Assembly (NCBI GenBank): GCA_946612455.1
Contig: CAMOER010000008.1
Coordinates: 24,934 to 88,933, forward strand
Direction of reading: 5' to 3'
DNA length: 64,000 nucleotides
Source of the DNA: an uncultured Lachnospiraceae bacterium
GTDB lineage: Bacteria > Bacillota > Clostridia > Lachnospirales > Lachnospiraceae
Position 1 is the first letter of the stretch. Every line of letters starts with the position of its first letter. The translations under genes were made by a program, and so were the position numbers. Below the pieces are notes generated by a model. It made no database searches and was not told where the DNA came from. It worked only from the letters and a program-made list of their open reading frames with translations. Of this stretch, positions 1,721-54,482 are shown in pieces.

Positions 1721-3300
1721 TCAGAATCAGCAATATCAAACTGCCGCCGGGGTATGGTGCGGCAGATATCGAAAAACAATTGAGACGGATCGGCGTAAAG
1801 GGAAACGAGTATCAGCTTTCGAGGCTTTCCCTGGATGCCCGGAAGAAGGAGGATATTCATTATCTGGCTTCCGTCGACTTAAAAGAGACGGGCGCCCTGC
1901 GGCCGCGCGGCGGCATCCAGCTGTCGGAAATTCATGAAAGACCGTATGCGCCCCCGGAACATGGTTCCGGTACGCTGACCGGACGGCCCGTGATCATCGG
2001 CGCCGGACCTGCCGGCATGTTCGCCGGCCTTCTGCTTGCACAGCAGGGATACGCCCCGGTGGTAATTGAACGCGGGGCTCCGGCAGATGAACGGACGGGA
2101 ATCGTCCGGGATTTCTGGAATGGAGGTCAGATCGATCCGGATCCGGATTCCAATGCCTGCTTCGGCGAAGGCGGCGCAGGGACCTTTTCCGACGGAAAGC
2201 TGACGACCGGCATCAAAGACAGGAACGGACGGATCCGGCAGATCCTGCAGTGGTTTTATGAGGCCGGAGCGGATGAAGACATCCTTTACTGGCACAAACC
2301 GCATCTGGGCTCCGACAAGCTGCCGGGGATCATGATGAATATCCGCAAAAGAACGATTGCTTCCGGCGGATCCTACCGGTTTCACACCAGAGCCGAAAGA
2401 CTGATCATAAAAGACGGCGCCGTGCGGGGCGTTCTTCTGAAGAACAGCGCCGGAGAAACGGAAGAAATGGAAACGGGCTGTGTAATCCTGGCCTGCGGTC
2501 ATTCGGCCAGGGACACGATCCGTATACTGTATTCCCAGGGCGTGCCTGCGGAAAGCAAGAATTTTGCTGTCGGCCTCCGGATCGAACATCCGGCGGAAAT
2601 GATCAACAGCGCACAGTACGGGAAGACACAGGATCAGCTTCCGACAGCGGATTATAAGTTGACCGGGCAGAGCGAGGACGGACACGGCGTCTATTCCTTC
2701 TGCATGTGCCCGGGCGGCTGTGTGGTCGATTCCTCCACCGAACCCGGCATGATCTGCGTGAACGGTATGAGCCTGAAGGCCCGGGACGGCAGAAATTCCA
2801 ATTCCGCAATCGTGGTCGGCGTCGGACCGGCGGATTTCGGAGAAGGCGTATTTGCCGGGATGGACATGCAGATCCGTCTGGAAAAAGCAGCCTTCAGAGC
2901 CGGCGGCGGGAAGATCCCGGTCCAGCTTCTGGGCGATTTCATAAACGGGAAGGAATCCAGAGCCTTCGGCGATGTACAGCCGGATATCCGGGGAGCCTTT
3001 GCTTTTGCAGATCTCCGGGAGGTCTTGACGGATTCTCTTTCTTCGTCGATAATATCCGTAATGCCGAATTTCGGCAGAAGGATAGACGGATTCGACCGGT
3101 ATGATGCGGTCCTGTCCGGTGTGGAGAGCAGAACGTCCTCCCCTGTCAGGATCAACAGAGATGAACATTTTGAGAGCAGTATAAAAGGACTTTTCCCCTG
3201 CGGAGAGGGCGCCGGCTATGCGGGCGGGATCACATCCGCCGCAGCCGACGGGATGAAGACAGCAGAGGAGATCATAGGAAGATATAAGCCATGGATATGA
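1717..3300 (+). CDS. FAD-dependent protein (COG2509-type NAD(P)/FAD oxidoreductase)
   Basis: The ATG at 1717 overlaps the upstream stop (ATGA). GAGPAG dinucleotide-binding motif and a C-terminal GEGAGYAGGI motif. The longer 1660 start in the ORF track lies inside the upstream gene. Confidence 0.7.
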   Translation: MIRISNIKLPPGYGAADIEKQLRRIGVKGNEYQLSRLSLDARKKEDIHYLASVDLKETGALRPRGGIQLSEIHERPYAPPEHGSGTLTGRPVIIGAGPAGMFAGLLLAQQGYAPVVIERGAPADERTGIVRDFWNGGQIDPDPDSNACFGEGGAGTFSDGKLTTGIKDRNGRIRQILQWFYEAGADEDILYWHKPHLGSDKLPGIMMNIRKRTIASGGSYRFHTRAERLIIKDGAVRGVLLKNSAGETEEMETGCVILACGHSARDTIRILYSQGVPAESKNFAVGLRIEHPAEMINSAQYGKTQDQLPTADYKLTGQSEDGHGVYSFCMCPGGCVVDSSTEPGMICVNGMSLKARDGRNSNSAIVVGVGPADFGEGVFAGMDMQIRLEKAAFRAGGGKIPVQLLGDFINGKESRAFGDVQPDIRGAFAFADLREVLTDSLSSSIISVMPNFGRRIDGFDRYDAVLSGVESRTSSPVRINRDEHFESSIKGLFPCGEGAGYAGGITSAAADGMKTAEEIIGRYKPWI

Positions 3301-3515
3301 AAGACATTGACCGTATCAATACACTGTACCACAAAGCGAAGGCCGTGGGACTGACACCGGAGGAAAAAGCCGAACAGGACCGGCTGCGGCAGGAATATAT
3401 TGCAGCGATCCGGGCCAATCTGCGGGGGACGCTGGACAGTACGAAGATCCAGTATCCGGACGGACGGATCGTCGATCTGGGGGAAAAATACGGCAACAAA
3501 GGCAAAAAACACTAA
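3291..3515 (+). CDS. DUF896 family protein (YnzC-like)
   Basis: 74-aa helical protein. The INxLxxKxKxxGLTxEExxEQxxLRxEY pattern matches the UPF0291/DUF896 family. Confidence 0.7.
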   Translation: MDMKDIDRINTLYHKAKAVGLTPEEKAEQDRLRQEYIAAIRANLRGTLDSTKIQYPDGRIVDLGEKYGNKGKKH

Positions 3516-3527
3516 GGAGCTGGGGAT

Positions 3528-4988
3528 ATGAAGACCTTTCGAGCAGCTGCCTGCGCGGCAGTGATGGGACTGATGATACTTGTTTTTTCCGTACCGGCAT
3601 TCGGCGCAGATCTTTATCCGCTGGCAGACGGAAAGAGCATGGTGTATACCTATCCGATAAAATCCGGCAGTATTACCGTCTATTCTGATGAGAATCTGTC
3701 TGTGCAGACGGAGAAAATCAAGGGAAGCAAGACATATGCCGCGATCATGAAACAGTCCGGATCCGCCATCTACGCAAAATACAAGTACAACGGGAAACTG
3801 AAGGAAGGCTGGTTCAAGGCCTCGGTTTTCCTTTGTCAGCCGTCATACGAGTCTGCAGATGCCTGTACAAGGTATGATGCAAAAGTCATCCGTACCGTCA
3901 AAAAGAAAAAATCCTTCGGCTCGATCCCCGCGTTTTCCAAACTGCAGATCGTCGGGGAATATAAGGGATACCGGCAGATTGTCTTCCAGTACGGAAAGAA
4001 ATACCGTATGGGCTGGGTCACCGAGAGTGTCTATAATAATAAGATCAAGCTGTATGACGGTTCCGAAAAGCAGATCATGGCCGATGGGACCTACACGCTC
4101 GCACCGAAGAGCGGAAAAGGGATGCTTGTGACTTCGGAGAACGGCAAAGTGGCGCTGGCAGAAGCGGATAAGAACGCAAAACAGAAGTTCGTGTTCGAAT
4201 ATTATACGAGCGATTATTTCCGTATCAGCAGCTCCGCTGACAGTTTGTACCTGACCTATAATGCATCCGGAGAAGGCGATCCTGTCATCATGGCTGCGAA
4301 ATCTGCAGATCCGGATGATAAAACACAGCTCTGGCATATGGAACGCTACGGCGCCTATTATTATCTGAAGAATGCTGCAGCCGGCCAATATCTGTATGCG
4401 GATGACACTTTCTGCCTGAAACCGGCCGGCGGCAATGATCACAAGAGATTCCGGGTCGTCATGGCAGACGGAAAGAACAAGAATCACTGGAGGGTCTTCT
4501 GCCAGTACGAACCGGACTGGGGCGGTAAGAAGTACGGAAGGACAAACAACATGGCAGCTTCCGCCTGCGGCATCCTGTCCCTGACCAATACGGTCTATGC
4601 GCTCAACGGACAGTATATAGATCCGATGAAGACGGCAGCCTTCGCAGTGAAGAAGAAATACAGAGTCGAGGGCAGCGGCACGAGCTACAAGGTCTTTGCA
4701 GCCGCAGCAAAGCAATTCGGCAAGACGTACGGCTTCGAGTATCTGGGTGCCACGACCAGTTTCAACGTACTGAAAAAGCATCTGAAGAAAGGGGAGACGG
4801 CGATCGCCTATGTGCCCGGTCATTATATGGCCTGCGTAGCCTATAAAGGCGGAAAATACCTGATGCTGGAATCCGCGTACGGCAAGAAGCGCGGAACGAC
4901 CCCTTACGGAGACTGGGTGACCGCCTCCCGGCTGAAGAGCGGCGCGATGAAATCGAAGAACTTTTTCGTCTTTAAAGCCACGGACTGA
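3528..4988 (+). CDS. secreted multidomain protein: SH3b-like repeats, ricin-type lectin-like segment, C-terminal C39/papain-like cysteine peptidase-like domain
   Basis: Signal peptide MKTFRAAACAAVMGLMILVFSVPAFGA. GWV/GWF SH3b-like motifs. QKFVFEY and QLWHMERYG (QxW-like) lectin motifs. C-terminal Cys (ASACGILS) and His (GHYMACVAY) spaced as in C39-like peptidases. Confidence 0.55.
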   Translation: MKTFRAAACAAVMGLMILVFSVPAFGADLYPLADGKSMVYTYPIKSGSITVYSDENLSVQTEKIKGSKTYAAIMKQSGSAIYAKYKYNGKLKEGWFKASVFLCQPSYESADACTRYDAKVIRTVKKKKSFGSIPAFSKLQIVGEYKGYRQIVFQYGKKYRMGWVTESVYNNKIKLYDGSEKQIMADGTYTLAPKSGKGMLVTSENGKVALAEADKNAKQKFVFEYYTSDYFRISSSADSLYLTYNASGEGDPVIMAAKSADPDDKTQLWHMERYGAYYYLKNAAAGQYLYADDTFCLKPAGGNDHKRFRVVMADGKNKNHWRVFCQYEPDWGGKKYGRTNNMAASACGILSLTNTVYALNGQYIDPMKTAAFAVKKKYRVEGSGTSYKVFAAAAKQFGKTYGFEYLGATTSFNVLKKHLKKGETAIAYVPGHYMACVAYKGGKYLMLESAYGKKRGTTPYGDWVTASRLKSGAMKSKNFFVFKATD

Positions 4989-4997
4989 TCTGATCAC

Positions 4998-5040
4998 AAG
5001 AAGCAAAGCAGTAAGTATTCTGCTTTGCTTCTTTTCAAAT
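4998..5040 (+). terminator. rho-independent terminator
   Basis: 14-bp perfect stem AAGAAGCAAAGCAG / CTGCTTTGCTTCTT with an 8-nt loop, followed by a T-rich tail. Confidence 0.75.
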
Positions 5041-5167
5041 TACGGCTTGCTATAATACGTCCGTTTTGCTAAAATGATTAATCAGCCTTGTCCTTTCCTG
5101 CAGTGTGCGGGACAGTGACATCTGACCTGGGACAGGAATTCGCTTTGCGATTAAAGGATTGAGAAGA

Positions 5168-6607
5168 ATGACAAAATTTGACCTGGATATGATCGACATC
5201 ACGATGCCGCCGCCTGAATATGAACCCATGCGGCAGTACTATTATATGCGTCTCTGCAGGGATATTATCTGCAGAATGCAGACGGAAAAAGGAAGACCGC
5301 TCACCTGCTGCGTCAACACCTTCGGCTGCCAGATGAACGCCCGGGATTCGGAAAAGCTGCTCGGCGTGCTGACAGCGGTGGGGTTTACGGAAAGCGAAGA
5401 TGAGAATGCCGATCTGGTCCTCTACAATACCTGTACGGTCAGAGAAAATGCCAATGTCCGTGTCTACGGACGCCTGGGGCATCTGCATCACTATAAAAAG
5501 AAGAATCCCGATATGCTGATCGGCCTGTGCGGCTGCATGATGCAGGAACCGAAGGTCGTGGAAAAGCTCAGATCCTCCTATCCTTTCGTGGACCTGATCT
5601 TCGGCACCCATAATGTCTATAAGCTGGCAGAGCTTCTGTACCGCGTTCTGGCAGAAAAAACAAGAGTCATTGATATCTGGGACAAAGCGGATGCGATCGT
5701 GGAGGATCTTCCGGTCAACCGGAAATATTCCTTCAAATCCGGCGTCAATATCTCTTTTGGCTGCAACAATTTCTGCACCTACTGCATCGTTCCTTACGTC
5801 AGAGGCCGGGAACGCAGCCGCGCACCGGAGGATATCCTGAAAGAGATCCGGCAGCTGGCCGATGACGGCGTGATCGAGATCATGCTGCTCGGGCAGAATG
5901 TCAATTCCTACGGCAAGGATCTGGAGACGCCCATGACATTTTCCGAACTGCTCCGGGAAGTGGAGAAGATCGAAGGGATCCGAAGGATCCGGTTCATGAC
6001 GTCCCATCCGAAGGATCTTTCGGATGAACTGATCGCTGTCATGAAGGACAGCAAAAAAATCTGCAGGCATCTGCATCTGCCGCTGCAGTCGGGAAGCACA
6101 AAGCTCCTTGCGGCCATGAACCGCAGATATACCAAAGAAGATTATCTGAACCTGGCACTGAAGATCCGGCGAGAGATCCCGGACATTTCCCTGACAACGG
6201 ATATCATTGTCGGCTTCCCCGGCGAGACGGAAGAGGATTTTCAGGATACGCTGGACGTCGTCCGCCAGGTCCGTTATGAGAGCGCATTCACCTTCATCTA
6301 TTCGCCCCGCACAGGCACGCCGGCCGCGAAGATGGAGCAGGTACCGGAAGCTGTTGTCCATGAACGCTTTGACAGACTTCTTGCCGAAGTGCAGGAGATC
6401 GCGAAGGAAGTTTGCTGCAGGGATACCGGAAAGATAATGGAAGTGCTGGTCGAAGAGGTCAATGAGAAGGATCCTTCACTGCTGACCGGCAGACTGTCGA
6501 ATCATATCATGGTCCATTTCCCGGGATGTCCGGCGCTTGTCGGCAGGCTGGTCAATGTGAAGCTGACGTCAGCGCACGGATTCTATTATCAGGGAGAAAT
6601 GGTCTGA
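5168..6607 (+). CDS. miaB: tRNA (N6-isopentenyl-A37) methylthiotransferase MiaB
   Basis: UPF0004 N-domain (NTFGCQMN), radical-SAM CNNFCTYC motif and C-terminal TRAM region. The ATG at 5168 follows an AAGGA RBS; the track start at 5159 is a TTG. Confidence 0.9.
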   Translation: MTKFDLDMIDITMPPPEYEPMRQYYYMRLCRDIICRMQTEKGRPLTCCVNTFGCQMNARDSEKLLGVLTAVGFTESEDENADLVLYNTCTVRENANVRVYGRLGHLHHYKKKNPDMLIGLCGCMMQEPKVVEKLRSSYPFVDLIFGTHNVYKLAELLYRVLAEKTRVIDIWDKADAIVEDLPVNRKYSFKSGVNISFGCNNFCTYCIVPYVRGRERSRAPEDILKEIRQLADDGVIEIMLLGQNVNSYGKDLETPMTFSELLREVEKIEGIRRIRFMTSHPKDLSDELIAVMKDSKKICRHLHLPLQSGSTKLLAAMNRRYTKEDYLNLALKIRREIPDISLTTDIIVGFPGETEEDFQDTLDVVRQVRYESAFTFIYSPRTGTPAAKMEQVPEAVVHERFDRLLAEVQEIAKEVCCRDTGKIMEVLVEEVNEKDPSLLTGRLSNHIMVHFPGCPALVGRLVNVKLTSAHGFYYQGEMV

Positions 6608-6655
6608 TCTGGGGCGTCCTGCAGGGACTGCCCGATTTGGAGAGGTTTGATACAC

Positions 6656-9304
6656 ATGATGACACCGATGATGCAGCATTATCTGGATACGAAAAAAGAG
6701 TATCCGGACTGCATTTTATTCTACAGGCTCGGCGATTTTTATGAAATGTTCTACGAGGACGCCATCACGGTCTCCCGGGAACTTGAACTGACGCTGACGG
6801 GCAAGGACTGCGGCATGCCGGAACGTGCGCCCATGTGCGGCGTGCCGCATCATGCAGCCGACGTCTATATCAGCAAGCTCGTGGAACGGGGATTTAAAGT
6901 CGCCATTGCAGAGCAGACGGAGGATCCGAAGCAGGCAAAGGGACTGGTACGCCGGGAAGTCGTCCGGATCGTGACGCCCGGGACGAACATGGCCCCGCAG
7001 GCGCTGGAAGAAGGCAGAAACAATTACATCATGTGCATTGCTGCGCAGGACCGGGAATTCGGACTTTCCGCAGCAGATGTTTCTACGGGCGAATTTTTTG
7101 CGACGGAAGTGACCTCTGTCGGAGAACTGTTCGATGAGATCTATAAATTCATGCCGTCCGAGATCATCGTAAATGAAGCCTTTATGATCCGCGGCGTGGA
7201 TACAGATGAACTGAAGAACCGCTATCATATGATGATCTCCGTGCTGCCGGCTTCGTATTTTAAGGAAACGGACTGCGTGAAACGGCTCTGTGATCATTTC
7301 GATGTCTATTCCTATGAAAGCCTGGGCTTTAAGGACCGCCACGCGGCAGGTCTTGCTTCCGGCGCTATGCTCATTTATCTGGATGAGACACAGAAGATCG
7401 CGCTCACGCATATTACCGGGGTCAGCCTGTATGACCGTGGGAAATATATGATCATCGATACGTCCACCAGAAGAAATCTGGAACTGACCGAGACGCTGCG
7501 GGAGAAGAAGAAGCACGGGACGCTTCTGTGGGTCCTGGACCGGACGAAGACCGCCATGGGCGCCAGACTCCTGCGTACCATTATCGAACAGCCGCTCCTC
7601 ACAAAGGAGGAGATCATCCGTCGGCAGGATGCGATTCAGGATCTTCTGGACGATCTGATCACCAGAGAGGAGCTGCGGGAATATCTGGCTCCTGTCTATG
7701 ACCTGGAGCGTCTGATGGGAAGGATCACCTTCCATACGGCCGGTCCCAGAGATCTGATCGCTTTTAAGACATCCCTGGAAATGCTGCCGCATATCAGAGG
7801 ACTGCTGCAGGGCTTTGAGAGTGCCCTGCTTACAGAGCTTCATGAGGATATGGATGATCTCACAGATATCTGCGCAATGATCGGCGCAGCGATCAATGAT
7901 GATCCGCCGCTGTCCTCGAAGGAAGGCGGCATTATCAAGGCCGGATATTCCGAAGAAGCCGACCGGCTCCGGGAGGCAAAAACAGAGGGTAACGGCTGGC
8001 TGAAAGAGCTCGAAGAAACAGAAAAAGAGCGCACAGGCATCAAGAACCTGCGTATCAAATACAACAGAGTATTCGGCTATTATCTGGAGGTCACCAACTC
8101 CTTTAAGGATCTGGTACCGGAGGATTATATCCGGAAGCAGACGCTGACGAATGCCGAACGGTACACGACGCCGCGGCTGAAAGAACTTGAGAACGTCATT
8201 CTGGGCGCCGATGAAAAACTGACCGCGTTGGAATATGACATTTTCTGTGAGATCCGGGAGCATATTTCGGGACAAGTCGCACGTGTTCAGAAGACAGCCC
8301 ATGCGGTTGCCATGCTGGATGTGCTGCTGTCGCTGGCGCATGCCGCAGAGCATGAGCATTTCGTGCGGCCGAAGATCAACGACAAAGGAAGCATCAATAT
8401 CATCGGCGGACGTCATCCGGTGGTTGCCAAAATGATGAAGGATGAGCCGTTCGTACCGAACGATACGAAGCTGGATCTGAAGGAGCACAGGATCGCCGTC
8501 ATCACCGGACCGAACATGGCCGGTAAGTCCACGTACATGCGGCAGACAGCGCTGATCGTGCTGATGGCGCAGACCGGATCCTTTGTCCCGGCCGATAAGG
8601 CGGACATCGGGATCAGCGACCGGATCTTCACTCGCGTCGGCGCATCGGACGATCTCGCTTCCGGGCAGAGCACCTTCATGGTGGAAATGACGGAAGTGGC
8701 CAACATCCTGCGGAATGCTACCAGGAATTCCCTTCTGATCCTGGACGAGATCGGCAGGGGCACGAGCACATTTGACGGCCTGGCGATCGCGTGGGCGGTC
8801 GTGGAGCATATCAGTCAGCCGAAGCTGATCGGCGCGAAAACGCTTTTTGCGACGCATTATCATGAACTGACGGAGCTGGAAGGTCATCTTCCCGGCGTGA
8901 ACAACTACTGCATTGCCGTCAAGGAGCAGGGAGATACGATCGTTTTCCTGCGTAAGATCGTTGCCGGCGGCGCGGACAAGAGCTACGGTATCCAGGTCGC
9001 AAAGCTGGCCGGCGTTCCCGGACAGGTGATCGAGAGAGCGAAGGAACTCGTCGCGGAACTGTCCGATGCGGATATCTCGGCACGTGCTAGAGAAGTCGCA
9101 GAGTCGGGGGTCACCGACAGGAAAAAACACGTTCCGAAACCGGATTACGTCGACAGGAACCAGCTTTCGCTGTTCGATACGAACAGTGACGACGAGATCC
9201 TGAAGGAGATCGACAGCCTGGAGCTTTCCACGATGACACCGATCGATGCACTGAATACACTGTATTCGCTGCAGGCTAAAAGAAAGAACCGCTGGCAGGG
9301 ATAA
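6656..9304 (+). CDS. mutS: DNA mismatch repair protein MutS
   Basis: N-terminal TPMMQHYL..FYRLGDFYE mismatch-binding motif. Walker A GPNMAGKST. DEIGRGTST motif. Confidence 0.95.
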   Translation: MMTPMMQHYLDTKKEYPDCILFYRLGDFYEMFYEDAITVSRELELTLTGKDCGMPERAPMCGVPHHAADVYISKLVERGFKVAIAEQTEDPKQAKGLVRREVVRIVTPGTNMAPQALEEGRNNYIMCIAAQDREFGLSAADVSTGEFFATEVTSVGELFDEIYKFMPSEIIVNEAFMIRGVDTDELKNRYHMMISVLPASYFKETDCVKRLCDHFDVYSYESLGFKDRHAAGLASGAMLIYLDETQKIALTHITGVSLYDRGKYMIIDTSTRRNLELTETLREKKKHGTLLWVLDRTKTAMGARLLRTIIEQPLLTKEEIIRRQDAIQDLLDDLITREELREYLAPVYDLERLMGRITFHTAGPRDLIAFKTSLEMLPHIRGLLQGFESALLTELHEDMDDLTDICAMIGAAINDDPPLSSKEGGIIKAGYSEEADRLREAKTEGNGWLKELEETEKERTGIKNLRIKYNRVFGYYLEVTNSFKDLVPEDYIRKQTLTNAERYTTPRLKELENVILGADEKLTALEYDIFCEIREHISGQVARVQKTAHAVAMLDVLLSLAHAAEHEHFVRPKINDKGSINIIGGRHPVVAKMMKDEPFVPNDTKLDLKEHRIAVITGPNMAGKSTYMRQTALIVLMAQTGSFVPADKADIGISDRIFTRVGASDDLASGQSTFMVEMTEVANILRNATRNSLLILDEIGRGTSTFDGLAIAWAVVEHISQPKLIGAKTLFATHYHELTELEGHLPGVNNYCIAVKEQGDTIVFLRKIVAGGADKSYGIQVAKLAGVPGQVIERAKELVAELSDADISARAREVAESGVTDRKKHVPKPDYVDRNQLSLFDTNSDDEILKEIDSLELSTMTPIDALNTLYSLQAKRKNRWQG

Positions 9305-32680: not shown

Positions 32681-32716
32681 CACAAAATAGCGGAGAAACC
32701 CGAAGATTTCTCCGTT
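32681..32716 (-). terminator. rho-independent terminator after glmM
   Basis: The minus strand has AACGGAGAAATC-TTCG-GGTTTCTCCGCT followed by ATTTTGTG. Confidence 0.75.
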
Positions 32717-32727
32717 ATGCAGAGGTT

Positions 32728-34074
32728 TTATTCCATATGTCCCTTTGCCTTGATCACCGCGATCACGTCATCGACATATTTCTCGCAGATCTCATCTGTA
32801 TCGGCTTCGACCATGACTCTGATCACGGGCTCGGTGCCGGACTCACGGACCAGAATACGGCCGTTGTCACCGAGTTCTTCCGCGACTTTCGCAACGGCAG
32901 CCTGCACATCCGGATCGTTCTGCGCGTCGGGCTTGCTCTTGACGCGGACGTTCTTCAGCACCTGCGGATAGAATACGACTGGGGCCGCCAGCTCGCTCAT
33001 GGGCTTCTTCTTCGCCAGCATGACCTCCATCATCTTCAGGGAAGTCAGGATGCCGTCGCCGGTCGTCTCGTACTTCGAGAAAATGATATGGCCGCTCTGT
33101 TCGCCGCCGATCCGGTGTCCGTTCGCGATCATGTTCTCATAGACATACTTGTCGCCGACTTTGGTCTTCTCATATTCGATGCCGGCTTTGTCGAGCGCCT
33201 TGTACAGTCCGAAGTTGCTCATGACGGTCGTGACGACTTTATTGTTGAGCAGCTTTCCGCGCTCCTTCATGTAGACGCCGTAGATATAGATGATGTGGTC
33301 GCCGGTGATGACATTTCCCTTTTCATCCACGCAGAGGCATCTGTCGGCATCGCCGTCAAAGGCAAATCCGACATCCAGGCCTTTCTCGACCACGAACTTC
33401 TGCAGATGCTCGATATGCGTGCTGCCGCAGTCCGTGTTGATGTTGTAGCCGTCGGGATCGTCATTCATGACATACGTCTTGGCGCCCAGCGCGTCGAAAA
33501 TGCCCTTGGCGATCTGCCAGGCCGCGCCGTTCGCAACATCCAGTCCGACCTTGACATCCTTGAAGCTGTATTTGGACATGGAGATCAGATGGCCGATATA
33601 GCGGTTGCGGCCCGCGACATAGTCGACGGTACGGCCGATATTCTCCCGTTCGGAGACCGGGATCTCCATCTTTCCGTCAATATAATCCTCGACCTTCAGG
33701 ATCGTCTCCTCATCCATCTTCTCGCCGCTTCCGTTCAGAAGCTTGATGCCGTTGTCATAGAAGGGATTGTGGGATGCGGAGATCATGATGCCGCAGTCAA
33801 AATCATCGACTCTGGTGATATAGGCGACGGACGGTGTGGTCGTAACATGCATGATATAGGCATCTGCGCCGCTGGCCATCAGGCCGGTGCAGAGGGCATA
33901 CTCGAACATGTAGGAGGATCTTCTGGTATCCTTGCCGATCACGATCTTGGCTTTCTTTCCCTGTCTGGCGCCGTAGTACCAGCCCAGGAATCTGCCGATC
34001 TTAATGGCATGGTCAAATGTCAGTGTCTTGTTGGCTTCCCCGCGGAAACCGTCTGTTCCGAAATATTTTCCCAT
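32728..34074 (-). CDS. glmM: phosphoglucosamine mutase GlmM
   Basis: [12 protein letters not shown] start, active-site [21 protein letters not shown] Mg site, GGEQSGH sugar-binding loop. Confidence 0.95.
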
Positions 34075-34745
34075 TATTTTTTCCTCACGATCTCACCGTT
34101 GTTTTTGTGAATGCTGTACTCCGGGATCACGCCGCGGACGCAGGATGTCGGATAGACATTGCAGTGACGTCCGATCACGGTGCCGGGGTTCAGTACGGAA
34201 TTGCAGCCGACCTCCACATAGTCGCCCAGCATGGCGCCGAATTTCTTCAGGCCGGTGGGAATGTCTTCGCCCTGGTTGTGGACGACGACAAGCTGCTTAT
34301 CGGATTTCACGTTGGAAGTGATCGATCCGGCGCCCATATGGCTGTAATAGCCGAGGATGGAATCGCCGACATAATTATAATGCGGCGTCTGTACATGGTC
34401 GAACAGGATGACGTTCTTCAGCTCGCAGCTGTTGCCGACGACACAGTTCGCACCGACAAGCGCCGCGCTGCGGATGAACGCGCAGTGGCGGACTTCGGTC
34501 TCCGGTCCGATGATGCAGGGAGCGCCGAGATAAGCGGAAGGAAAGACCTTCGCGGTCTTATGGACCCAGACATGCTCGGAGACTTCTTCATAATCCTCTC
34601 CCAGCTGCGGGCCGAGGGTAAGAATCAGCTCCTTGATGCCCTTCAGTGCTTCCCAGGGATAAGTGAAGCCGCGGAGGTAATCCGCAGCGATCGTATGCTC
34701 AAGATCATACAGGTCATTGATCGTATACATAAATACTGTCCTCAT
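34074..34745 (-). CDS. left-handed beta-helix (hexapeptide-repeat) protein, GlmU-C-terminal-like acyltransferase candidate
   Basis: 223 aa with repeated [LIV]-G-x4 hexapeptide periodicity (IGPETEV, VGANCVV, VGDSIL, VGCNSVL, IGRHCNV). Start and stop overlap yvcK and glmM. Confidence 0.55.
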   Translation of the reverse strand: MRTVFMYTINDLYDLEHTIAADYLRGFTYPWEALKGIKELILTLGPQLGEDYEEVSEHVWVHKTAKVFPSAYLGAPCIIGPETEVRHCAFIRSAALVGANCVVGNSCELKNVILFDHVQTPHYNYVGDSILGYYSHMGAGSITSNVKSDKQLVVVHNQGEDIPTGLKKFGAMLGDYVEVGCNSVLNPGTVIGRHCNVYPTSCVRGVIPEYSIHKNNGEIVRKK

Positions 34746-35707
34746 TCGTATTCGTTTTCCATCAGATAGGAGAAAACCAGAAAGGCGGTGTGCAGCACTT
34801 TGTGTCTGATCTTCTCTTCTTCATCAATGCAGAAAATATCGTCTTCGATGATCCTGGTACCGAGCTCTGCAATATTCTCCCTGTCGAGCTCGACAAGCGT
34901 TTTCTTCTCGGTGACCAGATATTTCTCCGTGATCTTCGGGTCGATCCCGGCATTGTTCGCGACCACGATATCCACATTCCGGCTGCCCAGATAGCTGTTG
35001 AGGACCTTCAGATGGTCGCTCACATTGTAGCCGTCGGTCTCGCCGGGCTGGGTGACCAGGTTGGAAATATACATGATCGGCGCATCCGAATGCTCGATCG
35101 CTTTAACAATATCTTCGGCGATCAGGTGCGGCAGAATGGACGTATAAAGACTGCCGGGGCTGAAAATGATCAGATCAGCCTCTGCGATGGCTTTCTTTAC
35201 CTTCTTCGTCACATGAATATTATGGTCATAGGACAGCCTGGAGATCCTGCGGATATTCTGGCTGACGCTGACCTGCCCGAAGAACTCCTCGCCGTTCTCG
35301 TCGCTGATGCCGACAAGCTCGGCCCGCTCCTCGGTGAGCGGAAGCACTTCGCCCTTGATGTTCAGGAGATTTCCCATGTACCTGGCAGCCTCGGTGAGAC
35401 TCCCCTTCTGATCGATCAGTGCGGTCAGAAGAATATTGCGGACTGGATGATTAAAAAGCGTGGAACCTTCCTTGTGGAAACGGTAGCGAAGCAGTTTGAT
35501 CAGATCCTCATCCGCATTGGCCATGGAAAGCAGGACTTTGCCGACGTCGCCTACGGCAGGAATATCGAATTCCTTTTTCAGAACGCCGGTGCTGCTGCCA
35601 TCGTCACTCACCGTGATCACGGTCGTGACTTCGACCGGAAACAGCTTCAGTCCCGACAGGAGGCACGAGAGTCCCGTGCCTCCTCCGAAGACGATCACTT
35701 TTTTCAT
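34742..35707 (-). CDS. yvcK: YvcK-family (CofD-like) gluconeogenesis/morphogenesis factor
   Basis: MKKVIVFGGGTGLSCLLSGLK N-terminus, SNLVTQPGETDGY motif, about 320 aa. Confidence 0.85.
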   Translation of the reverse strand: MKKVIVFGGGTGLSCLLSGLKLFPVEVTTVITVSDDGSSTGVLKKEFDIPAVGDVGKVLLSMANADEDLIKLLRYRFHKEGSTLFNHPVRNILLTALIDQKGSLTEAARYMGNLLNIKGEVLPLTEERAELVGISDENGEEFFGQVSVSQNIRRISRLSYDHNIHVTKKVKKAIAEADLIIFSPGSLYTSILPHLIAEDIVKAIEHSDAPIMYISNLVTQPGETDGYNVSDHLKVLNSYLGSRNVDIVVANNAGIDPKITEKYLVTEKKTLVELDRENIAELGTRIIEDDIFCIDEEEKIRHKVLHTAFLVFSYLMENEYE

Positions 35708-35709
35708 TA

Positions 35710-36501
35710 TTACAGTCTTTCCTTCTTCTCGATGTCAAGAAAATACTTGTAGGTGTCAACGGTCAGTTCGCCGCAGGCTTCCTCGTCGCAGGCGATGATC
35801 GCGCCGTTGTGCATCTGGAGTGCGGAGCAGGTCCATTTCTGGCTGACGCCGCCTTCTACGGTAGCGGCAAGTGCTCTGGCTTTGTTGTGTCCGGAAATCA
35901 GGACAAGGACTTCCTTCGAATCGGTAACGGTTCCGATACCGACGGAAAGCGCCTGTGCAGGGACCTTTTCCGGATCATTTCCAAAGAAACGGCTGTTCAC
36001 GATCCTGGTGTCGGTCGTCAGATCCCTGACGCCGGTACGGGAAGTAAGGGAAGTGTAGGGCTCGTTGAAAGCAAGATGGCCGTCTACACCGATGCCGCCC
36101 ATGAACAGATCGATGCCGCCGTAGGAAGCGATCTTGGCTTCGTAAGCAGCGCACTCCGCTTCGGGATCCTCGGTCATGCCGTTCAGAATATTGATATTCT
36201 CGGGCTTCATGTCAACAAGATGATCGAAAAGATTGTCATGCATGAAATACCAGTAGCTCTGGTCATGCTCGTGCGGCAGTCCGAGATATTCGTCCATGTT
36301 GAAAGTGACGACATTCGCAAAGGAAAGCTCGCCGGCCTGGTTCATGCGGACAAGCTCTTTATAAACGCCGATCGGGCTGGAGCCGGTCGGAAGACCGAGG
36401 ACAAAGGGACGGTCCTCTTTATGAGCCTTGATCTTTGCAGCGATATAATCGGCTGCCCATTTGCACATCTTATCGTAATTATCCTGAATAACAACTCTCA
36501 T
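35710..36501 (-). CDS. nagB: glucosamine-6-phosphate deaminase NagB (E. coli-type, about 263 aa)
   Basis: Collinear with E. coli NagB as I recall it: RPFVLGLPTGSSP, VVTFNMDEYLGLP, LFMGGIGVDGHLAFNEP, DTRIVNSRFF. Confidence 0.92.
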   Translation of the reverse strand: MRVVIQDNYDKMCKWAADYIAAKIKAHKEDRPFVLGLPTGSSPIGVYKELVRMNQAGELSFANVVTFNMDEYLGLPHEHDQSYWYFMHDNLFDHLVDMKPENINILNGMTEDPEAECAAYEAKIASYGGIDLFMGGIGVDGHLAFNEPYTSLTSRTGVRDLTTDTRIVNSRFFGNDPEKVPAQALSVGIGTVTDSKEVLVLISGHNKARALAATVEGGVSQKWTCSALQMHNGAIIACDEEACGELTVDTYKYFLDIEKKERL

Positions 36502-36527
36502 TGTATGATCTCCTTTGTTTTAAGATA

Positions 36528-36683
36528 AGACGTCGGAAGAGCCTCTGTTACAGTGTTGATTCTGCTTTTTGCTCTCTTCCTGTCGGCCCGTCCGCTGCAG
36601 AATTTTGCAGTTCTGACCGTGGCAGCATCCGCCGAATCTTTCGATGACTGCCATACCTCGTCAACCTTGCGGTCCCGGCGCTA
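36528..36683 (-). ncRNA. glmS ribozyme: glmS ribozyme (GlcN6P-activated self-cleaving riboswitch)
   Basis: The minus strand reads A/GCGCCGGGACCGCAAGGUUGACGAGGUAUGGCAGUCAUCGAAAGAUUCGGCGGAUGCUGCCACGG...GGCUCUUCC. It matches the conserved blocks of the B. subtilis ribozyme as I recall them (AGCGCC, GUUGACGAGG, AUCGAA, UUCGGCGGAUGC, 3' UCUUCC). The predicted cleavage site is 5' of the G at 36681. Confidence 0.88.
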
Positions 36684-36764
36684 ACCTGTTTCCTGTTTAC
36701 CTCCGTGAAGAAACGGGTTTTACATATATAGAGTCCGTATGTAATAACACAGACCTAGCTAATA

Positions 36765-36793
36765 ATTTTATACTGCAGAATGATGATTGTCAA
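36765..36793 (-). promoter_or_regulatory. candidate sigma-A promoter for the ribozyme-nagB operon
   Basis: The minus strand has TTGACA, 17 nt, TAAAAT, located in the last codons of rng. Confidence 0.5.
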
Positions 36794-37943
36794 GAATTGT
36801 TAACTGTGCATCAAGCGGATTCCTTTTCTTCTGCCTGGTGATCTCCGCAAGACCGAGCTTTGTGATATCGATGAGTACAGCTTTGGCCGGATCATCCCGG
36901 AGAGCTTCCTGAAAGGCCGATTCCACGTCCTTCCAGTGAACGCGGTCCTTCATGTTGATCAGATCGGCGAGAATGATGCCTGATAAATTCCGGAGACGGA
37001 TCTGATAGCCGATCTCCGCGGCAGCCTCCAGATTCGTGCGCAGGAAGGTCTCCTCTTTGTCTTTCCCGCTGATGGCGCTGCCGGTATTGACATCGATCAC
37101 TGTCATCGCTTCCGTCCGGTCGATGATCAGATATCCGCCGGATTTCAGCCAGACCTTCCGGCTGCGGGCCAGATCAAGATAATGAGAAAGTCGGAAAAGC
37201 TTTGCCAACGGCCAGGCATCGTCATACGATCTTGTCGAGAACCGGATTCCCGCAAGGACCGGATCCTTCTGCAGTGCGTCGAGAATGGCCGCATCGTCGG
37301 AAATGACTTCGGTCTCTTCTTCCTCCTGCAGACCGAGAAGACGTTCTCTCAGGAAATCGGGAGCCGGGGAAAGAAGGTTCCCGGGGGTACGGAAGGCGGC
37401 ATCTGCAAGGATTCTGTCCGCTCTTCCAATCAGGACTTTCGCTTCCCGGAGGATCACTTCCGGATCTGCAGCAAATGCATTTGTCCGGATGATGAAGCCG
37501 TACGACGGATTCTCGCATACCTGCGCCAGCATCTCCCGGATGCGGGCGGCAAGTTTTCTGTCCTGTACCTTCTTTGAAACGCAGAAGCGTTCGCCCTTCG
37601 GCGCATAAAGAAAAACAAGATATCTTCCGGCCAGGGAGAATCTGGCGGTCAGCATCTCCTCTTTCGAGCCGGCGGCTTCCCGCTTGACCTGGACAGGGAT
37701 CAGCATCCTGCCTTTCGGCGGGACCGGGCATTCCGAAAGCGGAAGAAAGCCGGTCTTCCCGTTTCCGAGGTCACAGAAAGCGGCGCGGATATTTTCGGAA
37801 ATGTCTTTCACGCTGCAGACAACGATATCGCCGGTCTTCAGGGAAGCACCGGCAGGAGCCGCATCCAGCGCAATGATCCTGTCCTGCTCTGATTCTGCTG
37901 TGAGGATCATGTTTTGATATTTGGTGACAATGAATTTTTTCAT
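36768..37943 (-). CDS. rng: ribonuclease E/G family protein (Rng-like)
   Basis: S1-like N-terminus, then RNase E/G catalytic-core motifs (GGYLIIDRTEAMTVIDVNTG, SGIILADLINM). ATG at 37943 overlaps the upstream stop (ATGA). Confidence 0.8.
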   Translation of the reverse strand: MKKFIVTKYQNMILTAESEQDRIIALDAAPAGASLKTGDIVVCSVKDISENIRAAFCDLGNGKTGFLPLSECPVPPKGRMLIPVQVKREAAGSKEEMLTARFSLAGRYLVFLYAPKGERFCVSKKVQDRKLAARIREMLAQVCENPSYGFIIRTNAFAADPEVILREAKVLIGRADRILADAAFRTPGNLLSPAPDFLRERLLGLQEEEETEVISDDAAILDALQKDPVLAGIRFSTRSYDDAWPLAKLFRLSHYLDLARSRKVWLKSGGYLIIDRTEAMTVIDVNTGSAISGKDKEETFLRTNLEAAAEIGYQIRLRNLSGIILADLINMKDRVHWKDVESAFQEALRDDPAKAVLIDITKLGLAEITRQKKRNPLDAQLTILDNHHSAV

Positions 37944-47920: not shown

Positions 47921-49531
47921 TTAATCTTCCCACTTTTCGATCACGCTGTCAATATCCCTGGTGAGCCTGCGCACATCGCGGTTCGTACGGCCGCGGAATG
48001 TCTCGATCAGCACCATCAGGCGCTTGCCTGCCTCCACAAGCGTTCTGTACAGGCCTTCGACCTTCGCAGCAGACTTCGGCGCTTCGACAGGAACGCCTTC
48101 CGTCAGGACGACGGCGCTGCCGGAGATCAGATCGTAGACCGTGCCGGAATACGGCGCGACCGCCCGTTTGATGCCCTGCTCATCCATCAGATAAGACGCG
48201 AAGGAAGCGGCCACGGCATCCTCTCCGTGGTTGACGAAGACCAGATCCGGCTGCTTCGTAAAGGACTTGATCCAGGCTGTCAGACCGTCCTTGTCCGCAT
48301 GGCCGCTGATATTGGCTAGATAAGAGATTTCCGCGTTCACCTGGATCTCTTCGCCGAACAGCATGACTTTCTCGGCGCCTTCGAATATCGCGCGGCCGAG
48401 CGTGCCGTTCGCCTGATAGCCGGCGAACAGGATCAGGGATTCCTTCCGCCACAGATTGTGCTTTAAGTGATGCCGGATCCGGCCGGCTTCGCACATGCCG
48501 CTGGCGGACAGGATCACCTTCGGCTCCTGATCGAAATTGATGGCTTTGGATTCCTCCGCGGAAACAGCGACCTCCAGACCCGGGAAAAAGATCGGATTGA
48601 CGCCTTCCGCAAGGACTTTCTGCAGGTCTTCGTCAAAGTAATCCGGATCTGTCTGTACGAAGATGCCGGTGGCTTCATTCGCAAGCGGAGAATCGATATA
48701 CACCTTAAAGTTCGGATTGCAGCTGACCAGTCCGCGCTGCTTGATCTCCCGGATATAATACAGAAGCTCCTGGGTGCGTCCGACCGCGAACGACGGGATC
48801 ACGACATTCCCGCCTCTTGCGAGCGTCTTCTCGATCGCTGCGGCAAGCTGCTCCACGATATCCGCGTGCTCCTGCGGCTTTTCATGATAGCGGTCGCCGT
48901 AAGTGGATTCGATAACAACATAATCGGCATCCTCAAAGGCTGCGGGATCCTTCAGGATCGGTTTGTCTTTGTTCCCGATATCGCCGGAGAAAACAATGGT
49001 GCGCTCTTCTCCGTTCTCCGTCAGGAACAGCTTGATGCAGGCCGACCCGAGCAGGTGCCCGACATCCCGGAAAATGACTTCGACGCCCTCGGCGGCCTGA
49101 AAACGTTTTTCATAAGGGTACGGAACAAACCGCTTCATGATGCCTTCCGCATCGTCCACCGTATACATCGGTTCGACGGGTTTCTTTCCGGAACGCTGTC
49201 CCTTGCGGTTCTTCCATTCCGCTTCCATTTCCTGGATGTGCGCGGAATCCCGGAGCATGATCTCACAAAGACTGGCAGTGGCTTCGGTCGCGTAGACCTG
49301 ACCGCGGAAACCCTGTTTGTACAGCAGCGGCAGTTTACCGGAATGATCGATATGCGCATGTGTCAGGATCACACAGTCGACTTCGGAAGGCCGGACAGGC
49401 AGTTCCTGATTCACAAAGACATCCCTTCCCTGCTCCATGCCGCAGTCGATCATGACATGCCTGTCACCGACGGTCAGGAGTGTGCAGGAACCGGTCACTT
49501 CATGTGTTGCGCCTAAAAATGTAATTTCCAT
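47921..49531 (-). CDS. MBL-fold beta-CASP ribonuclease-like hydrolase
   Basis: HAHIDHSG metallo-beta-lactamase motif, a beta-CASP region and a C-terminal RNA-specificity-like domain. 536 aa. Confidence 0.8.
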   Translation of the reverse strand: MEITFLGATHEVTGSCTLLTVGDRHVMIDCGMEQGRDVFVNQELPVRPSEVDCVILTHAHIDHSGKLPLLYKQGFRGQVYATEATASLCEIMLRDSAHIQEMEAEWKNRKGQRSGKKPVEPMYTVDDAEGIMKRFVPYPYEKRFQAAEGVEVIFRDVGHLLGSACIKLFLTENGEERTIVFSGDIGNKDKPILKDPAAFEDADYVVIESTYGDRYHEKPQEHADIVEQLAAAIEKTLARGGNVVIPSFAVGRTQELLYYIREIKQRGLVSCNPNFKVYIDSPLANEATGIFVQTDPDYFDEDLQKVLAEGVNPIFFPGLEVAVSAEESKAINFDQEPKVILSASGMCEAGRIRHHLKHNLWRKESLILFAGYQANGTLGRAIFEGAEKVMLFGEEIQVNAEISYLANISGHADKDGLTAWIKSFTKQPDLVFVNHGEDAVAASFASYLMDEQGIKRAVAPYSGTVYDLISGSAVVLTEGVPVEAPKSAAKVEGLYRTLVEAGKRLMVLIETFRGRTNRDVRRLTRDIDSVIEKWED

Positions 49532-54220: not shown

Positions 54221-54294
54221 TGGGACCGATGGGGCTCGAACCCATGACCTCTCGCGTGTGAGGCGAACGCTCATCCCAGCTGAGCTACGATCCC
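54221..54294 (-). tRNA. tRNA-Val (anticodon CAC)
   Basis: Hand-folded cloverleaf: acceptor GGGATCG/CGGTCCC, D arm GCTC..GAGC, anticodon stem TTCGC/GCGAG with loop CTCACAC, T arm ATGGG-TTCGAGC-CCCAT. CCA is not encoded. Confidence 0.9.
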
Positions 54295-54394: not shown

Positions 54395-54482
54395 CGGAGA
54401 GTGTGGGATTCGAACCCACGTGCCGGGAAACCGACAACCGCATTTCGAGTGCGGCTCGTTATGACCACTTCGATAACTCTCC
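54395..54482 (-). tRNA. tRNA-Ser (anticodon CGA), class II with a long variable arm
   Basis: Acceptor GGAGAGT/ACTCTCC, anticodon stem CCGCA/TGCGG with loop CTCGAAA, long variable arm, T arm GTGGG-TTCGAAT-CCCAC, discriminator G. Confidence 0.9.

Follow-up and report, generated by a model that had tools for sequence, protein, structure and literature searches.

A glmS ribozyme upstream of nagB in gut Clostridia suggests feedback control of an ammonium-dependent route to glucosamine-6-phosphate

Introduction

What does a glmS ribozyme control when it does not lie in the 5' untranslated region of a glmS (GFAT) gene? The question is raised by a 64-kb stretch of DNA from an uncultured Lachnospiraceae bacterium (GenBank assembly GCA_946612455.1, contig CAMOER010000008.1, positions 24,934 to 88,933; the whole stretch is referred to as the window), in which the first gene downstream of such a ribozyme is nagB, encoding a glucosamine-6-phosphate (GlcN6P) deaminase/isomerase. 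The initial annotation of this locus proposed that the enzyme runs in the biosynthetic direction, producing GlcN6P from fructose-6-phosphate (Fru6P) and ammonium as a replacement or backup for GlmS under feedback by the ribozyme.

The textbook example of a ribozyme that depends on a metabolite is the glmS ribozyme, which has also been proposed as a target for antibiotics. Surveys have described it as a regulator of glmS (PMC5473149, PMC2258182), and in the Bacillus system GlcN6P triggers the cleavage, after which the downstream RNA with its 5'-OH end is degraded (PMC5473149). In the open-access full-text literature, no prior description of a glmS ribozyme upstream of nagB was found. All but two of the ribozyme copies covered by the 2011 census of McCown et al. 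are said to reside in glmS mRNAs.

An intact and conserved glmS ribozyme precedes nagB

An Rfam scan of the window (cmscan) identified the RNA as a member of family RF00234, matching all model positions (1-167 of 167) at 55.5 bits (E = 4.2e-10; the gathering score of the family is 37); besides the ribozyme, just two tRNAs were matched. The cleavage motif AGCGCC occupies positions 36682-36677 of the minus strand, placing the cut site between A36682 and G36681, and the further core blocks GUUGACGAGG, AUCGAAAGAUUCGGCGGAUGC and the 3' strand of P4, CUCUUCC, were also found in the sequence, all blocks named in the initial annotation thus being present. P1, there described as minimal and GCAA-capped, is indeed a stem of 4 bp with a GCAA loop. 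At 26 nt, the loop of P3 is larger than the 8 nt of the model, and cmscan flagged three P4.1-region pairs as non-canonical.

Conservation of the fold was assessed on an alignment of 60 related ribozyme copies associated with nagB, considering the helices P1, P2, P2.1, P3, P4 and P4.1. The core and cleavage blocks A/GCGCC (the slash marking the cut), GACGAGG and UCGGCGGAUG, all present in the window, are invariant across the 60 copies. Compensatory double substitutions occurred in 18 of the 31 predicted pairs, and 98% of the helix cells were paired, as opposed to 31-47% when the partners were slid by one to three columns; none out of 500 column shuffles attained these figures. The invariant core and the covariation in nagB-linked copies therefore indicate that the RNA has been selected for the ribozyme fold in the nagB context.

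The covariation also effectively refutes the view that the RNA is a non-functional relic, decaying after a gene rearrangement and regulating nothing. Such decay might be read from the minimal P1, the three non-canonical P4.1 pairs and a score below that of canonical copies (about 105 bits in the second lineage described below), but the match is full length and above the gathering score, the core blocks do not vary, and the ribozyme has retained its 5'-end position through several permutations of the gene order; we regard the probability of a relic as negligible. These observations establish what the RNA is, that it is intact and that it is conserved, and it belongs to RF00234 by every feature checked except the defining genomic link to glmS. 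By homology with the Bacillus system, self-cleavage would be expected to depend on GlcN6P.

The ribozyme heads nagB-containing gene strings in related species

To define the relatives of the locus, one genome per species was scanned for close homologues of the window's NagB. At least 559 species were obtained, and the best 80 (92-99% identical) were used; these are metagenome-assembled genomes of rumen and gut Clostridia and two cultured Hungate isolates, YRB3002 (FMTG01) and G41 (FNEU01). The exact NagB of the window was also present on several metagenome contigs from the ruminant gut, with an identical order of genes. The glmS ribozyme was identified in 62 of the 80 species loci by nhmmer and Rfam, in each case as the 5'-terminal element of a nagB-containing gene string.

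The gene order behind the ribozyme (RZ) is permuted between the relatives, the ribozyme being 5'-terminal throughout. Most frequent was RZ-nagB-hexa-glmM (19 loci; hexa denotes a hexapeptide-repeat acetyltransferase), a type that also occurred with an added yvcK, as in the window (four loci), or continued by a GT2 gene and glmS (three loci). In about 16 loci, nagB stood alone behind the ribozyme. The order RZ-hexa-nagB-glmM was found in 11 loci and, with glmS immediately upstream, in four; RZ-glmM-nagB and RZ-hexa-glmM-nagB were each observed once. A yvcK/GlmR-family gene between nagB and the acetyltransferase gene was seen in only about eight of the 80 cassettes.

Compared to the canonical glmS ribozyme of Bacillus subtilis, the RNA family, the core, the cleavage site and the placement directly before the first regulated gene, in a 5' UTR or between cistrons, are all alike, as is, presumably, feedback repression by GlcN6P. 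The target differs, being nagB with its PF01182 isomerase fold instead of glmS (GFAT). In addition, the copies of the rumen clade lead a cassette of several genes (nagB, the acetyltransferase gene, glmM and in some loci yvcK or glmS), and their P1 is minimal and their P3 variable.

A second lineage carries nagB at the position of glmS

A further scan of metagenomes made use of a loose pattern for the ribozyme core and was, hence, blind to the downstream gene. It returned 80 loci, in which the ribozyme pattern was followed by glmS in 40 cases and by nagB in five; nine loci were too short to judge, and 26 loci were rejected as chance matches, as they were not recognised by Rfam. Of the five nagB-linked loci, four are from the rumen clade, and the remaining one, L158, has a highly canonical ribozyme of 106.8 bits followed by a gene for a 241-aa NagB of the monomeric type that is 42% identical to that of the window. 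Its relatives from Firmicutes of biogas and digester reactors (L209-L214) share the order cdaA-cdaR-glmM-ribozyme-nagB, e.g., L209 at 2561-6726, with RF00234 scores of 105-107 bits; one copy is located on a 2.13-Mb contig of GCA_900198705.1. No glmS was present within the loci of this lineage.

In B. subtilis, the corresponding operon has the order cdaA-cdaR-glmM-glmS, and the ribozyme precedes glmS (PMC6171935). With the flanking genes matching, nagB of the second lineage appears to have taken the place of glmS behind a retained ribozyme, and the pairing of ribozyme and nagB occurs here independently of the rumen clade. The adjacency for which a survey had been proposed in the initial annotation accordingly recurs not only in the 62 related species but also in a second lineage. 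A natural control is provided by Geosporobacter subterraneus, in which a related nagB resides in a GntR-PTS-NagA-EIIA cluster (PTS, phosphotransferase system) and has no ribozyme. The habitats of both lineages, the ruminant gut on the one hand and biogas or digester reactors on the other, are rich in ammonia.

At another locus, L129 (6016-10195), a true ribozyme (60.7 bits) is followed by a gene for a 698-aa GS-III-like glutamine synthetase and then by glmS. The supply of the nitrogen donor would here be co-regulated with GlmS, and judging from this gene order the ribozyme again appears to be tied to the nitrogen supply for GlcN6P synthesis.

Organization of the operon and its upstream region

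The features of the window's operon are compiled in Table 1. The order nagB, yvcK, hexapeptide-repeat protein, glmM was confirmed by the scores of the family profiles. Of the overlapping stops and starts reported initially, the tight spacing was borne out, the junctions ranging from -4 to +2 nt, so that not every pair of genes overlaps. The nagB product scored 374.8 bits on TIGR00502 (cut-off 236.9) and 80 bits on PF01182 (cut-off 27), and the solved structures that it matches best are 7lqm, 3hn6 and 1cd5. Among solved structures, the acetyltransferase is nearest to the C-terminal GlcN-1-P N-acetyltransferase domain of Sulfolobus ST0452 (residues 231-390, E = 3e-22), with the C-terminal domains of GlmU next in rank; gene callers place its start 15 nt further downstream, resulting in a protein of 218 aa. 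The operon thus encodes GlmM and a left-handed beta-helix protein resembling acetyltransferases for glucosamine-1-phosphate (GlcN1P), its putative substrate, and no uridylyltransferase domain.

Table 1. Features of the ribozyme-nagB operon (positions in the window)
Feature	Position	Strand	Remarks
Distal sigma-70-like promoter, TTGACA-17-TAAAAT	36765..36793	-	11/12 matches; overlaps the end of rng
Proximal -10-like box, TAAAAC	36717..36722	-	sequence inspection; putative function
Pre-cleavage leader	36685..36717	-	possible hairpin; candidate 5' stabiliser removed by cleavage
glmS ribozyme (RF00234)	36525..36693	-	Rfam and covariation
nagB ribosome-binding site, AAGGAGA	36509..36515	-	sequence
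nagB, GlcN6P deaminase/isomerase	35710..36501	-	263 aa, hexameric E. coli type
yvcK/glmR-like gene, CofD family	34742..35707	-	321 aa; TIGR01826, 270 bits (UDP-GlcNAc-binding YvcK family)
Stand-alone left-handed beta-helix (hexapeptide) acetyltransferase gene	34074..34745	-	
glmM, phosphoglucosamine mutase	32728..34074	-	448 aa; TIGR01455, 540 bits
Intrinsic terminator-like hairpin (10 bp) and T-tract	32691..32714	-	closes the operon after glmM, before rplU
Insertion site of the ribozyme unit	between rng and rplU-rpmA-obg		

The end of the ribozyme is separated from the ATG of nagB by 23 nt, and no terminator-like site was seen on the minus strand of this interval. A terminator parting ribozyme and gene, which would have spoken against a coupling of the two, is accordingly not apparent, and the promoter-like site lies upstream of the ribozyme. 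In the relatives, a conserved TAAAAT/TAAAAC box occupies the site equivalent to the proximal box, 35-40 nt 5' of the cleavage site.

The leader preceding the cleavage site can form a possible hairpin, in which CCCGUUUC (36717-36710) pairs with GAAACAGG (36692-36685) and the loop displays a Shine-Dalgarno-like GGAGG (36704-36700); for the window's leader, the minimum-free-energy fold is a different one. A GGAGG/AGGAG motif 18-24 nt 5' of the cleavage site was found in 57 of the 62 nagB-type ribozymes, in the rumen clade downstream of the TAAAAT/TAAAAC box, and in 50 of 59 unique leaders it forms part of the loop of a short hairpin whose stems covary. The same motif occurs in 19 of 40 canonical glmS-type leaders, compared to a background of 10% of random 32-nt windows, and the idea of a leader hairpin specific to nagB cassettes was therefore rejected. 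The GGAGG hairpin may serve as a 5' stabiliser of the mRNA that is lost upon cleavage.

As a side observation, long open reading frames extend on the plus strand opposite the operon genes, which are rich in GC at third codon positions (32737-34110, 34790-35752 and 35809-36528). These antisense shadow frames were rejected as genes and are regarded as composition artefacts; similar ones have no family hits.

NagB is under strong constraint and has an altered activator site

To gain a better understanding of the enzyme, the window's NagB was aligned to solved NagB proteins. In the following, E. coli numbering is used, which corresponds to the query position plus two before a one-residue indel near residue 95 and plus one beyond. 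The catalytic residues Asp72, Asp141, His143 and Glu148 are retained. In E. coli NagB, the site for the activator N-acetylglucosamine-6-phosphate (GlcNAc6P) is formed by Tyr121, Asp141, Glu148, Ser151, Arg158, Lys160 and Tyr254 (PMC4281351). The window's protein (residue 157), all 83 loci from a motif search and 118 of 120 database homologues have Gly in place of Arg158; the changes of Ser151 to Thr and of Lys160 to Arg are conservative, and the remaining residues of the site are retained. The intact activator site that marks allosteric hexameric NagB is, hence, not found in the window's protein. Throughout the rumen clade, Thr161 is in addition substituted by Asp, Asn or Ala. The R158G substitution would agree with a NagB that does not depend on the catabolic signal GlcNAc6P, as would suit an anabolic enzyme.

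With E. coli NagB, the window's protein shares the family and length class (TIGR00502), the catalytic residues and the C-terminal helix. In contrast to E. coli nagB, the window's gene has no nagA, nagE or nagC nearby and lies in one operon with anabolic genes, its product is altered at Arg158 and Thr161, and, where the E. coli enzyme belongs to a regulon induced by GlcNAc6P, it would be subject to repression by GlcN6P via the ribozyme.

The NagB proteins of the clade have a median identity of 93.5% to that of the window, while fourfold-degenerate sites are only 40% identical and, thus, near saturation. Within the same pairs of genomes, identity amounted to some 94% for NagB, 88% for GlmM, 89% for the acetyltransferase and 55-74% for GlmS (compared at loci L008, L009, L021, L047, L075, L034, L054, L023 and L020). 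Between the window and the syntenic locus L005, NagB is 98.9% identical, ribosomal protein L21 84% and Rng 58%, and synonymous divergence is similar in the cassette (0.55-0.60) and its flanks (0.44-0.68). Given the latter similarity and the near saturation of fourfold sites, recent horizontal transfer was rejected as the origin of the high NagB identity. These identities would fit a constraint on the cassette far above that on GlmS or, alternatively, a separate and older lateral history of the cassette. The whole cassette may still have spread laterally at an earlier time, given that the divergence of GlmS by far exceeds that of the cassette proteins.

The gene context of the cassette is anabolic

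An all-against-all census of neighbours at the 80 loci identified only glmM, the acetyltransferase gene and glmS as widely recurrent; minor neighbours were yvcK and genes for GT2 glycosyltransferases, mannose-6-phosphate isomerase and pseudaminic-acid synthase, clusters made up of antisense shadow frames being disregarded. Tblastn with the NagA, PTS-EIICB, EIIA and GntR proteins of the Geosporobacter catabolic cluster as probes gave no match, either in the window or across the roughly 1.2 Mb of the 80 loci. Linkage to nagA, to a transporter or PTS or to a regulator of the NagC/NagR type, by which the catabolic nag regulon is recognised, was accordingly not observed, and the context of the operon is anabolic, not catabolic. 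At L072 (8150-12801) and L071, a ribozyme-less nagB-hexa-glmM string lies directly 3' of a gene for a PseI-PseH fusion (pseudaminic-acid synthase), which is a further tie of the cassette to the synthesis of surface glycans.

This context bears on the possibility that NagB is catabolic and that the switch works the other way round, cleavage activating or stabilising the downstream mRNA such that GlcN6P would induce its own consumers, with NagB leading to glycolysis and GlmM and the acetyltransferase to the cell wall. NagB, GlmM and the acetyltransferase all use GlcN6P or its immediate product, which would make substrate induction coherent, and cleavage products with a 5'-OH are reportedly stable in hosts without decay of the RNase J1 type, as is said of the work of Collins et al. 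in 2007. A catabolic role is, however, at odds with the gene content around the 80 loci, none of which has genes for uptake, a kinase, NagA or a regulator nearby, and in the three loci with glmS in the ribozyme-led string an inverted switch would mean positive feedback by the product. Furthermore, the architecture of the second lineage is positionally homologous to the OFF switch of B. subtilis, and no design with a sequestered ribosome-binding site is apparent, the leader motif being purine-rich like such a site itself. We consider the inverted logic very improbable.

GlmS coexists with the cassette in some relatives

Neither by signature nor by tblastn was a GlmS found in the 64-kb window. 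An intact GlmS, recognised by its signature (MCGIVG...AKSVTVE), is encoded within 10 kb of nagB in ten of the 80 loci; that of L054 scored 791 bits on TIGR01135. The order RZ-nagB-hexa-glmM-GT2-glmS was observed in L020, L023 and L054, where the start of glmS abuts the stop of the GT2 gene and no terminator-like site was detected on the coding strand between the ribozyme and the end of glmS. In L008 (7138-9283), L009, L011 and L021, glmS is positioned immediately upstream of a ribozyme-led hexa-nagB-glmM string, with promoter-like sites between the glmS stop and the ribozyme. L034 (glmS-nagB) and L075 (glmS-glmM-hexa-nagB) are without a ribozyme, and in L047 glmS is convergent.

Directly 5' of glmS, no RF00234 match was obtained in the loci in which the region upstream of glmS is visible; L011, whose glmS is cut by the contig end, was left out of this judgement. 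Where a glmS-bearing locus has a ribozyme, it is the single one of the nagB cassette. A canonical ribozyme-glmS unit accompanied by a decayed second copy, raised initially as a scenario against the proposal, was thus not seen in the relatives, and the ribozyme of the window is intact.

These loci speak to the role of NagB relative to GlmS. Loss of glmS by the organism, leaving ribozyme-controlled NagB as the only de novo source of GlcN6P, would explain the missing GlmS in the window and the constraint on NagB at the level of a housekeeping protein; nagB of the second lineage, sitting in the exact glmS slot behind the ribozyme, looks like an in-situ displacement, and Giardia and Entamoeba provide precedents (PMC4281351). 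The window, however, covers a few percent of a genome, intact glmS lies within 10 kb of the cassette in ten of 80 close relatives, and the glmS-bearing L020, L023 and L054 form the group whose GlmM is closest to that of the window after L005. To our knowledge, GlmS is also near-universal in bacteria that make peptidoglycan. Full replacement appears unlikely to us for the window's organism, and for the at least ten glmS-bearing relatives the notion that NagB replaces GlmS fails. Of the initial proposal of a replacement or backup, the former does not hold in these species, and a backup or parallel route fits better.

The coexistence with GlmS might instead indicate a homeostatic clamp or relief valve, in which a near-equilibrium NagB, co-expressed with the pathway, mainly drains an overshoot of GlmS back to Fru6P and does not supply GlcN6P. 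Both genes share a ribozyme-led string in three loci, the reaction is freely reversible, and the known enzymes favour deamination. A valve that is switched off precisely at high GlcN6P would be illogical, however, and the ribozyme controls nagB alone in about 16 loci. Nor does a drain account for the second lineage, where nagB holds the glmS position at a locus without glmS, and purifying selection on NagB beyond that on GlmM and GlmS would be hard to explain. A relief valve is, in our estimation, improbable, even more so than full replacement.

A probable feedback-controlled, ammonium-dependent route to amino sugars

We favour, as somewhat better than an even proposition, that the ribozyme exerts GlcN6P feedback on an ammonium-dependent route to the precursors of UDP-N-acetylglucosamine (UDP-GlcNAc) that is initiated by NagB and exists alongside GlmS. 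The reasoning is that a switch turned off by GlcN6P would silence a catabolic NagB just when its substrate is abundant; if NagB makes GlcN6P, the arrangement becomes ordinary end-product feedback, as for glmS.

When GlcN6P is scarce, the mRNA would remain intact and all four proteins of the window's operon would be produced. NagB would then work in the aminating direction, converting Fru6P and ammonium to GlcN6P, and GlmM would convert GlcN6P to GlcN1P, the two reversible steps presumably being pulled toward UDP-GlcNAc by the irreversible, acetyl-CoA-dependent acetyltransferase. Upon accumulation, GlcN6P would act as the cofactor for self-cleavage at A36682/G36681, which would remove the 5' leader and leave a 5'-OH mRNA to be degraded, as happens with Bacillus glmS. 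The ribozyme would thereby limit the production of NagB to conditions of low GlcN6P, under which amination should be favoured by mass action in an ammonia-rich gut. The NagB of this clade would then offer a glutamine- and ATP-sparing route beside GlmS, not necessarily replacing it, and spare glutamine, hence one ATP, per amino sugar. Repression through RNA decay, like GlcN6P-dependent cleavage and the direction of NagB flux, is here inferred.

Rumen ammonia commonly amounts to 5-30 mM. The equilibrium constant, [Fru6P][NH4+]/[GlcN6P], is about 0.2 M (PMC11593775). From this value, an equilibrium concentration of some 50-100 uM GlcN6P was calculated for 10-20 mM NH4+ and about 1 mM Fru6P. Concentrations of 50-100 uM are about the range in which the ribozyme responds. 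The net flux through NagB would be aminating whenever GlcN6P falls below its equilibrium value, and only then would the ribozyme permit NagB to be produced. Multicopy nagB is also said to suppress glmS mutants of E. coli, an observation attributed to Vogler et al. in 1989.

Several points weigh against a biosynthetic NagB. The ribozyme is absent from 18 of the 80 loci, and the presence of GlmS in at least ten of the 80 relatives means that NagB is not needed there as the sole source; co-expression of the two could also set up a futile cycle. The allosteric effect of R158G is a prediction, and decay of the 5'-OH fragment by an RNase J-type enzyme is assumed by analogy with Bacillus. The characterised bacterial NagB enzymes favour deamination and have high Km values: that for NH4+ is 31 mM in E. 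coli (PMC11593775), and the Akkermansia enzyme, with 41 mM for NH4+ and 5.5 mM for Fru6P, was judged unable to aminate physiologically (PMC5902328). Taken together, the initial proposal of a biosynthetic NagB is supported in part, by an intact and coupled ribozyme, the biosynthetic context, conservation in 62 of 80 species and the second lineage, but not as regards a role as sole source in at least ten of the relatives.

Comparison with known systems and implications

The deaminase of Giardia and Entamoeba is anabolic, forms GlcN6P from Fru6P and NH4+ for amino-sugar polymers and is insensitive to GlcNAc6P (PMC4281351). Like the window's NagB, it has an incomplete allosteric site, and the aminating direction would be common to both. 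These organisms differ in being eukaryotic, in inducing the enzyme transcriptionally at encystment and in having no GlmS, whereas the present system is bacterial, carries a ribozyme and is accompanied by GlmS in some relatives. Akkermansia muciniphila is a gut anaerobe without GlmS, in which NagB is the sole candidate for interconversion of Fru6P and GlcN6P and which requires N-acetylglucosamine; a reverse NagB flux at gut ammonium levels was explicitly raised in that study (PMC5902328). Its nagB has neither a ribozyme nor a biosynthetic operon context, and the case advises caution against assuming that a NagB is anabolic.

In B. subtilis, GlmR (YvcK) binds UDP-GlcNAc, interacts with GlmS and is a proposed stimulator of the latter (PMC6171935). 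The yvcK product of the window belongs to the same family, TIGR01826, and both are linked to the first committed step toward UDP-GlcNAc. In contrast to the yvcJ-yvcK-whiA cluster of B. subtilis, the window's yvcK adjoins nagB, and an interaction of its product with NagB would be speculative.

On a broader scale, several lineages of anaerobic Firmicutes from ammonia-rich habitats may have recruited NagB as an ammonium-dependent GlcN6P synthase that supplements GlmS or, in some genomes, displaces it. The ribozyme would then have followed the function and not the gene, its regulon would be GlcN6P production, and an entry into amino sugars independent of glutamine and ATP would be widespread in bacteria; we see the case for and against this generalization as evenly balanced. 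A large and conserved set of ribozymes controlling nagB changes the view of what the glmS ribozyme regulates, and it gives strong genomic grounds for an anabolic NagB in bacteria, an idea usually dismissed on kinetics. This bears on the nitrogen and energy economy of rumen and digester microbiomes, on gap-filling in metabolic models, which by default treat NagB as catabolic, and on the premise that there is no route to target other than GlmS. As the arrangement is present in the two cultured rumen isolates, YRB3002 and G41, it is directly testable.

Other features of the window

At 47921-49531 (minus strand), the window encodes a 536-aa protein resembling beta-CASP ribonucleases of the metallo-beta-lactamase fold. 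Its best-scoring models are Cas14-like (412.8 bits, below the cut-off of 800) and aCPSF1-like, and no match to RNase J was obtained at E <= 1e-15. The two tRNA genes are located at 54221-54294 and 54395-54482, both on the minus strand, the second having a long variable arm.

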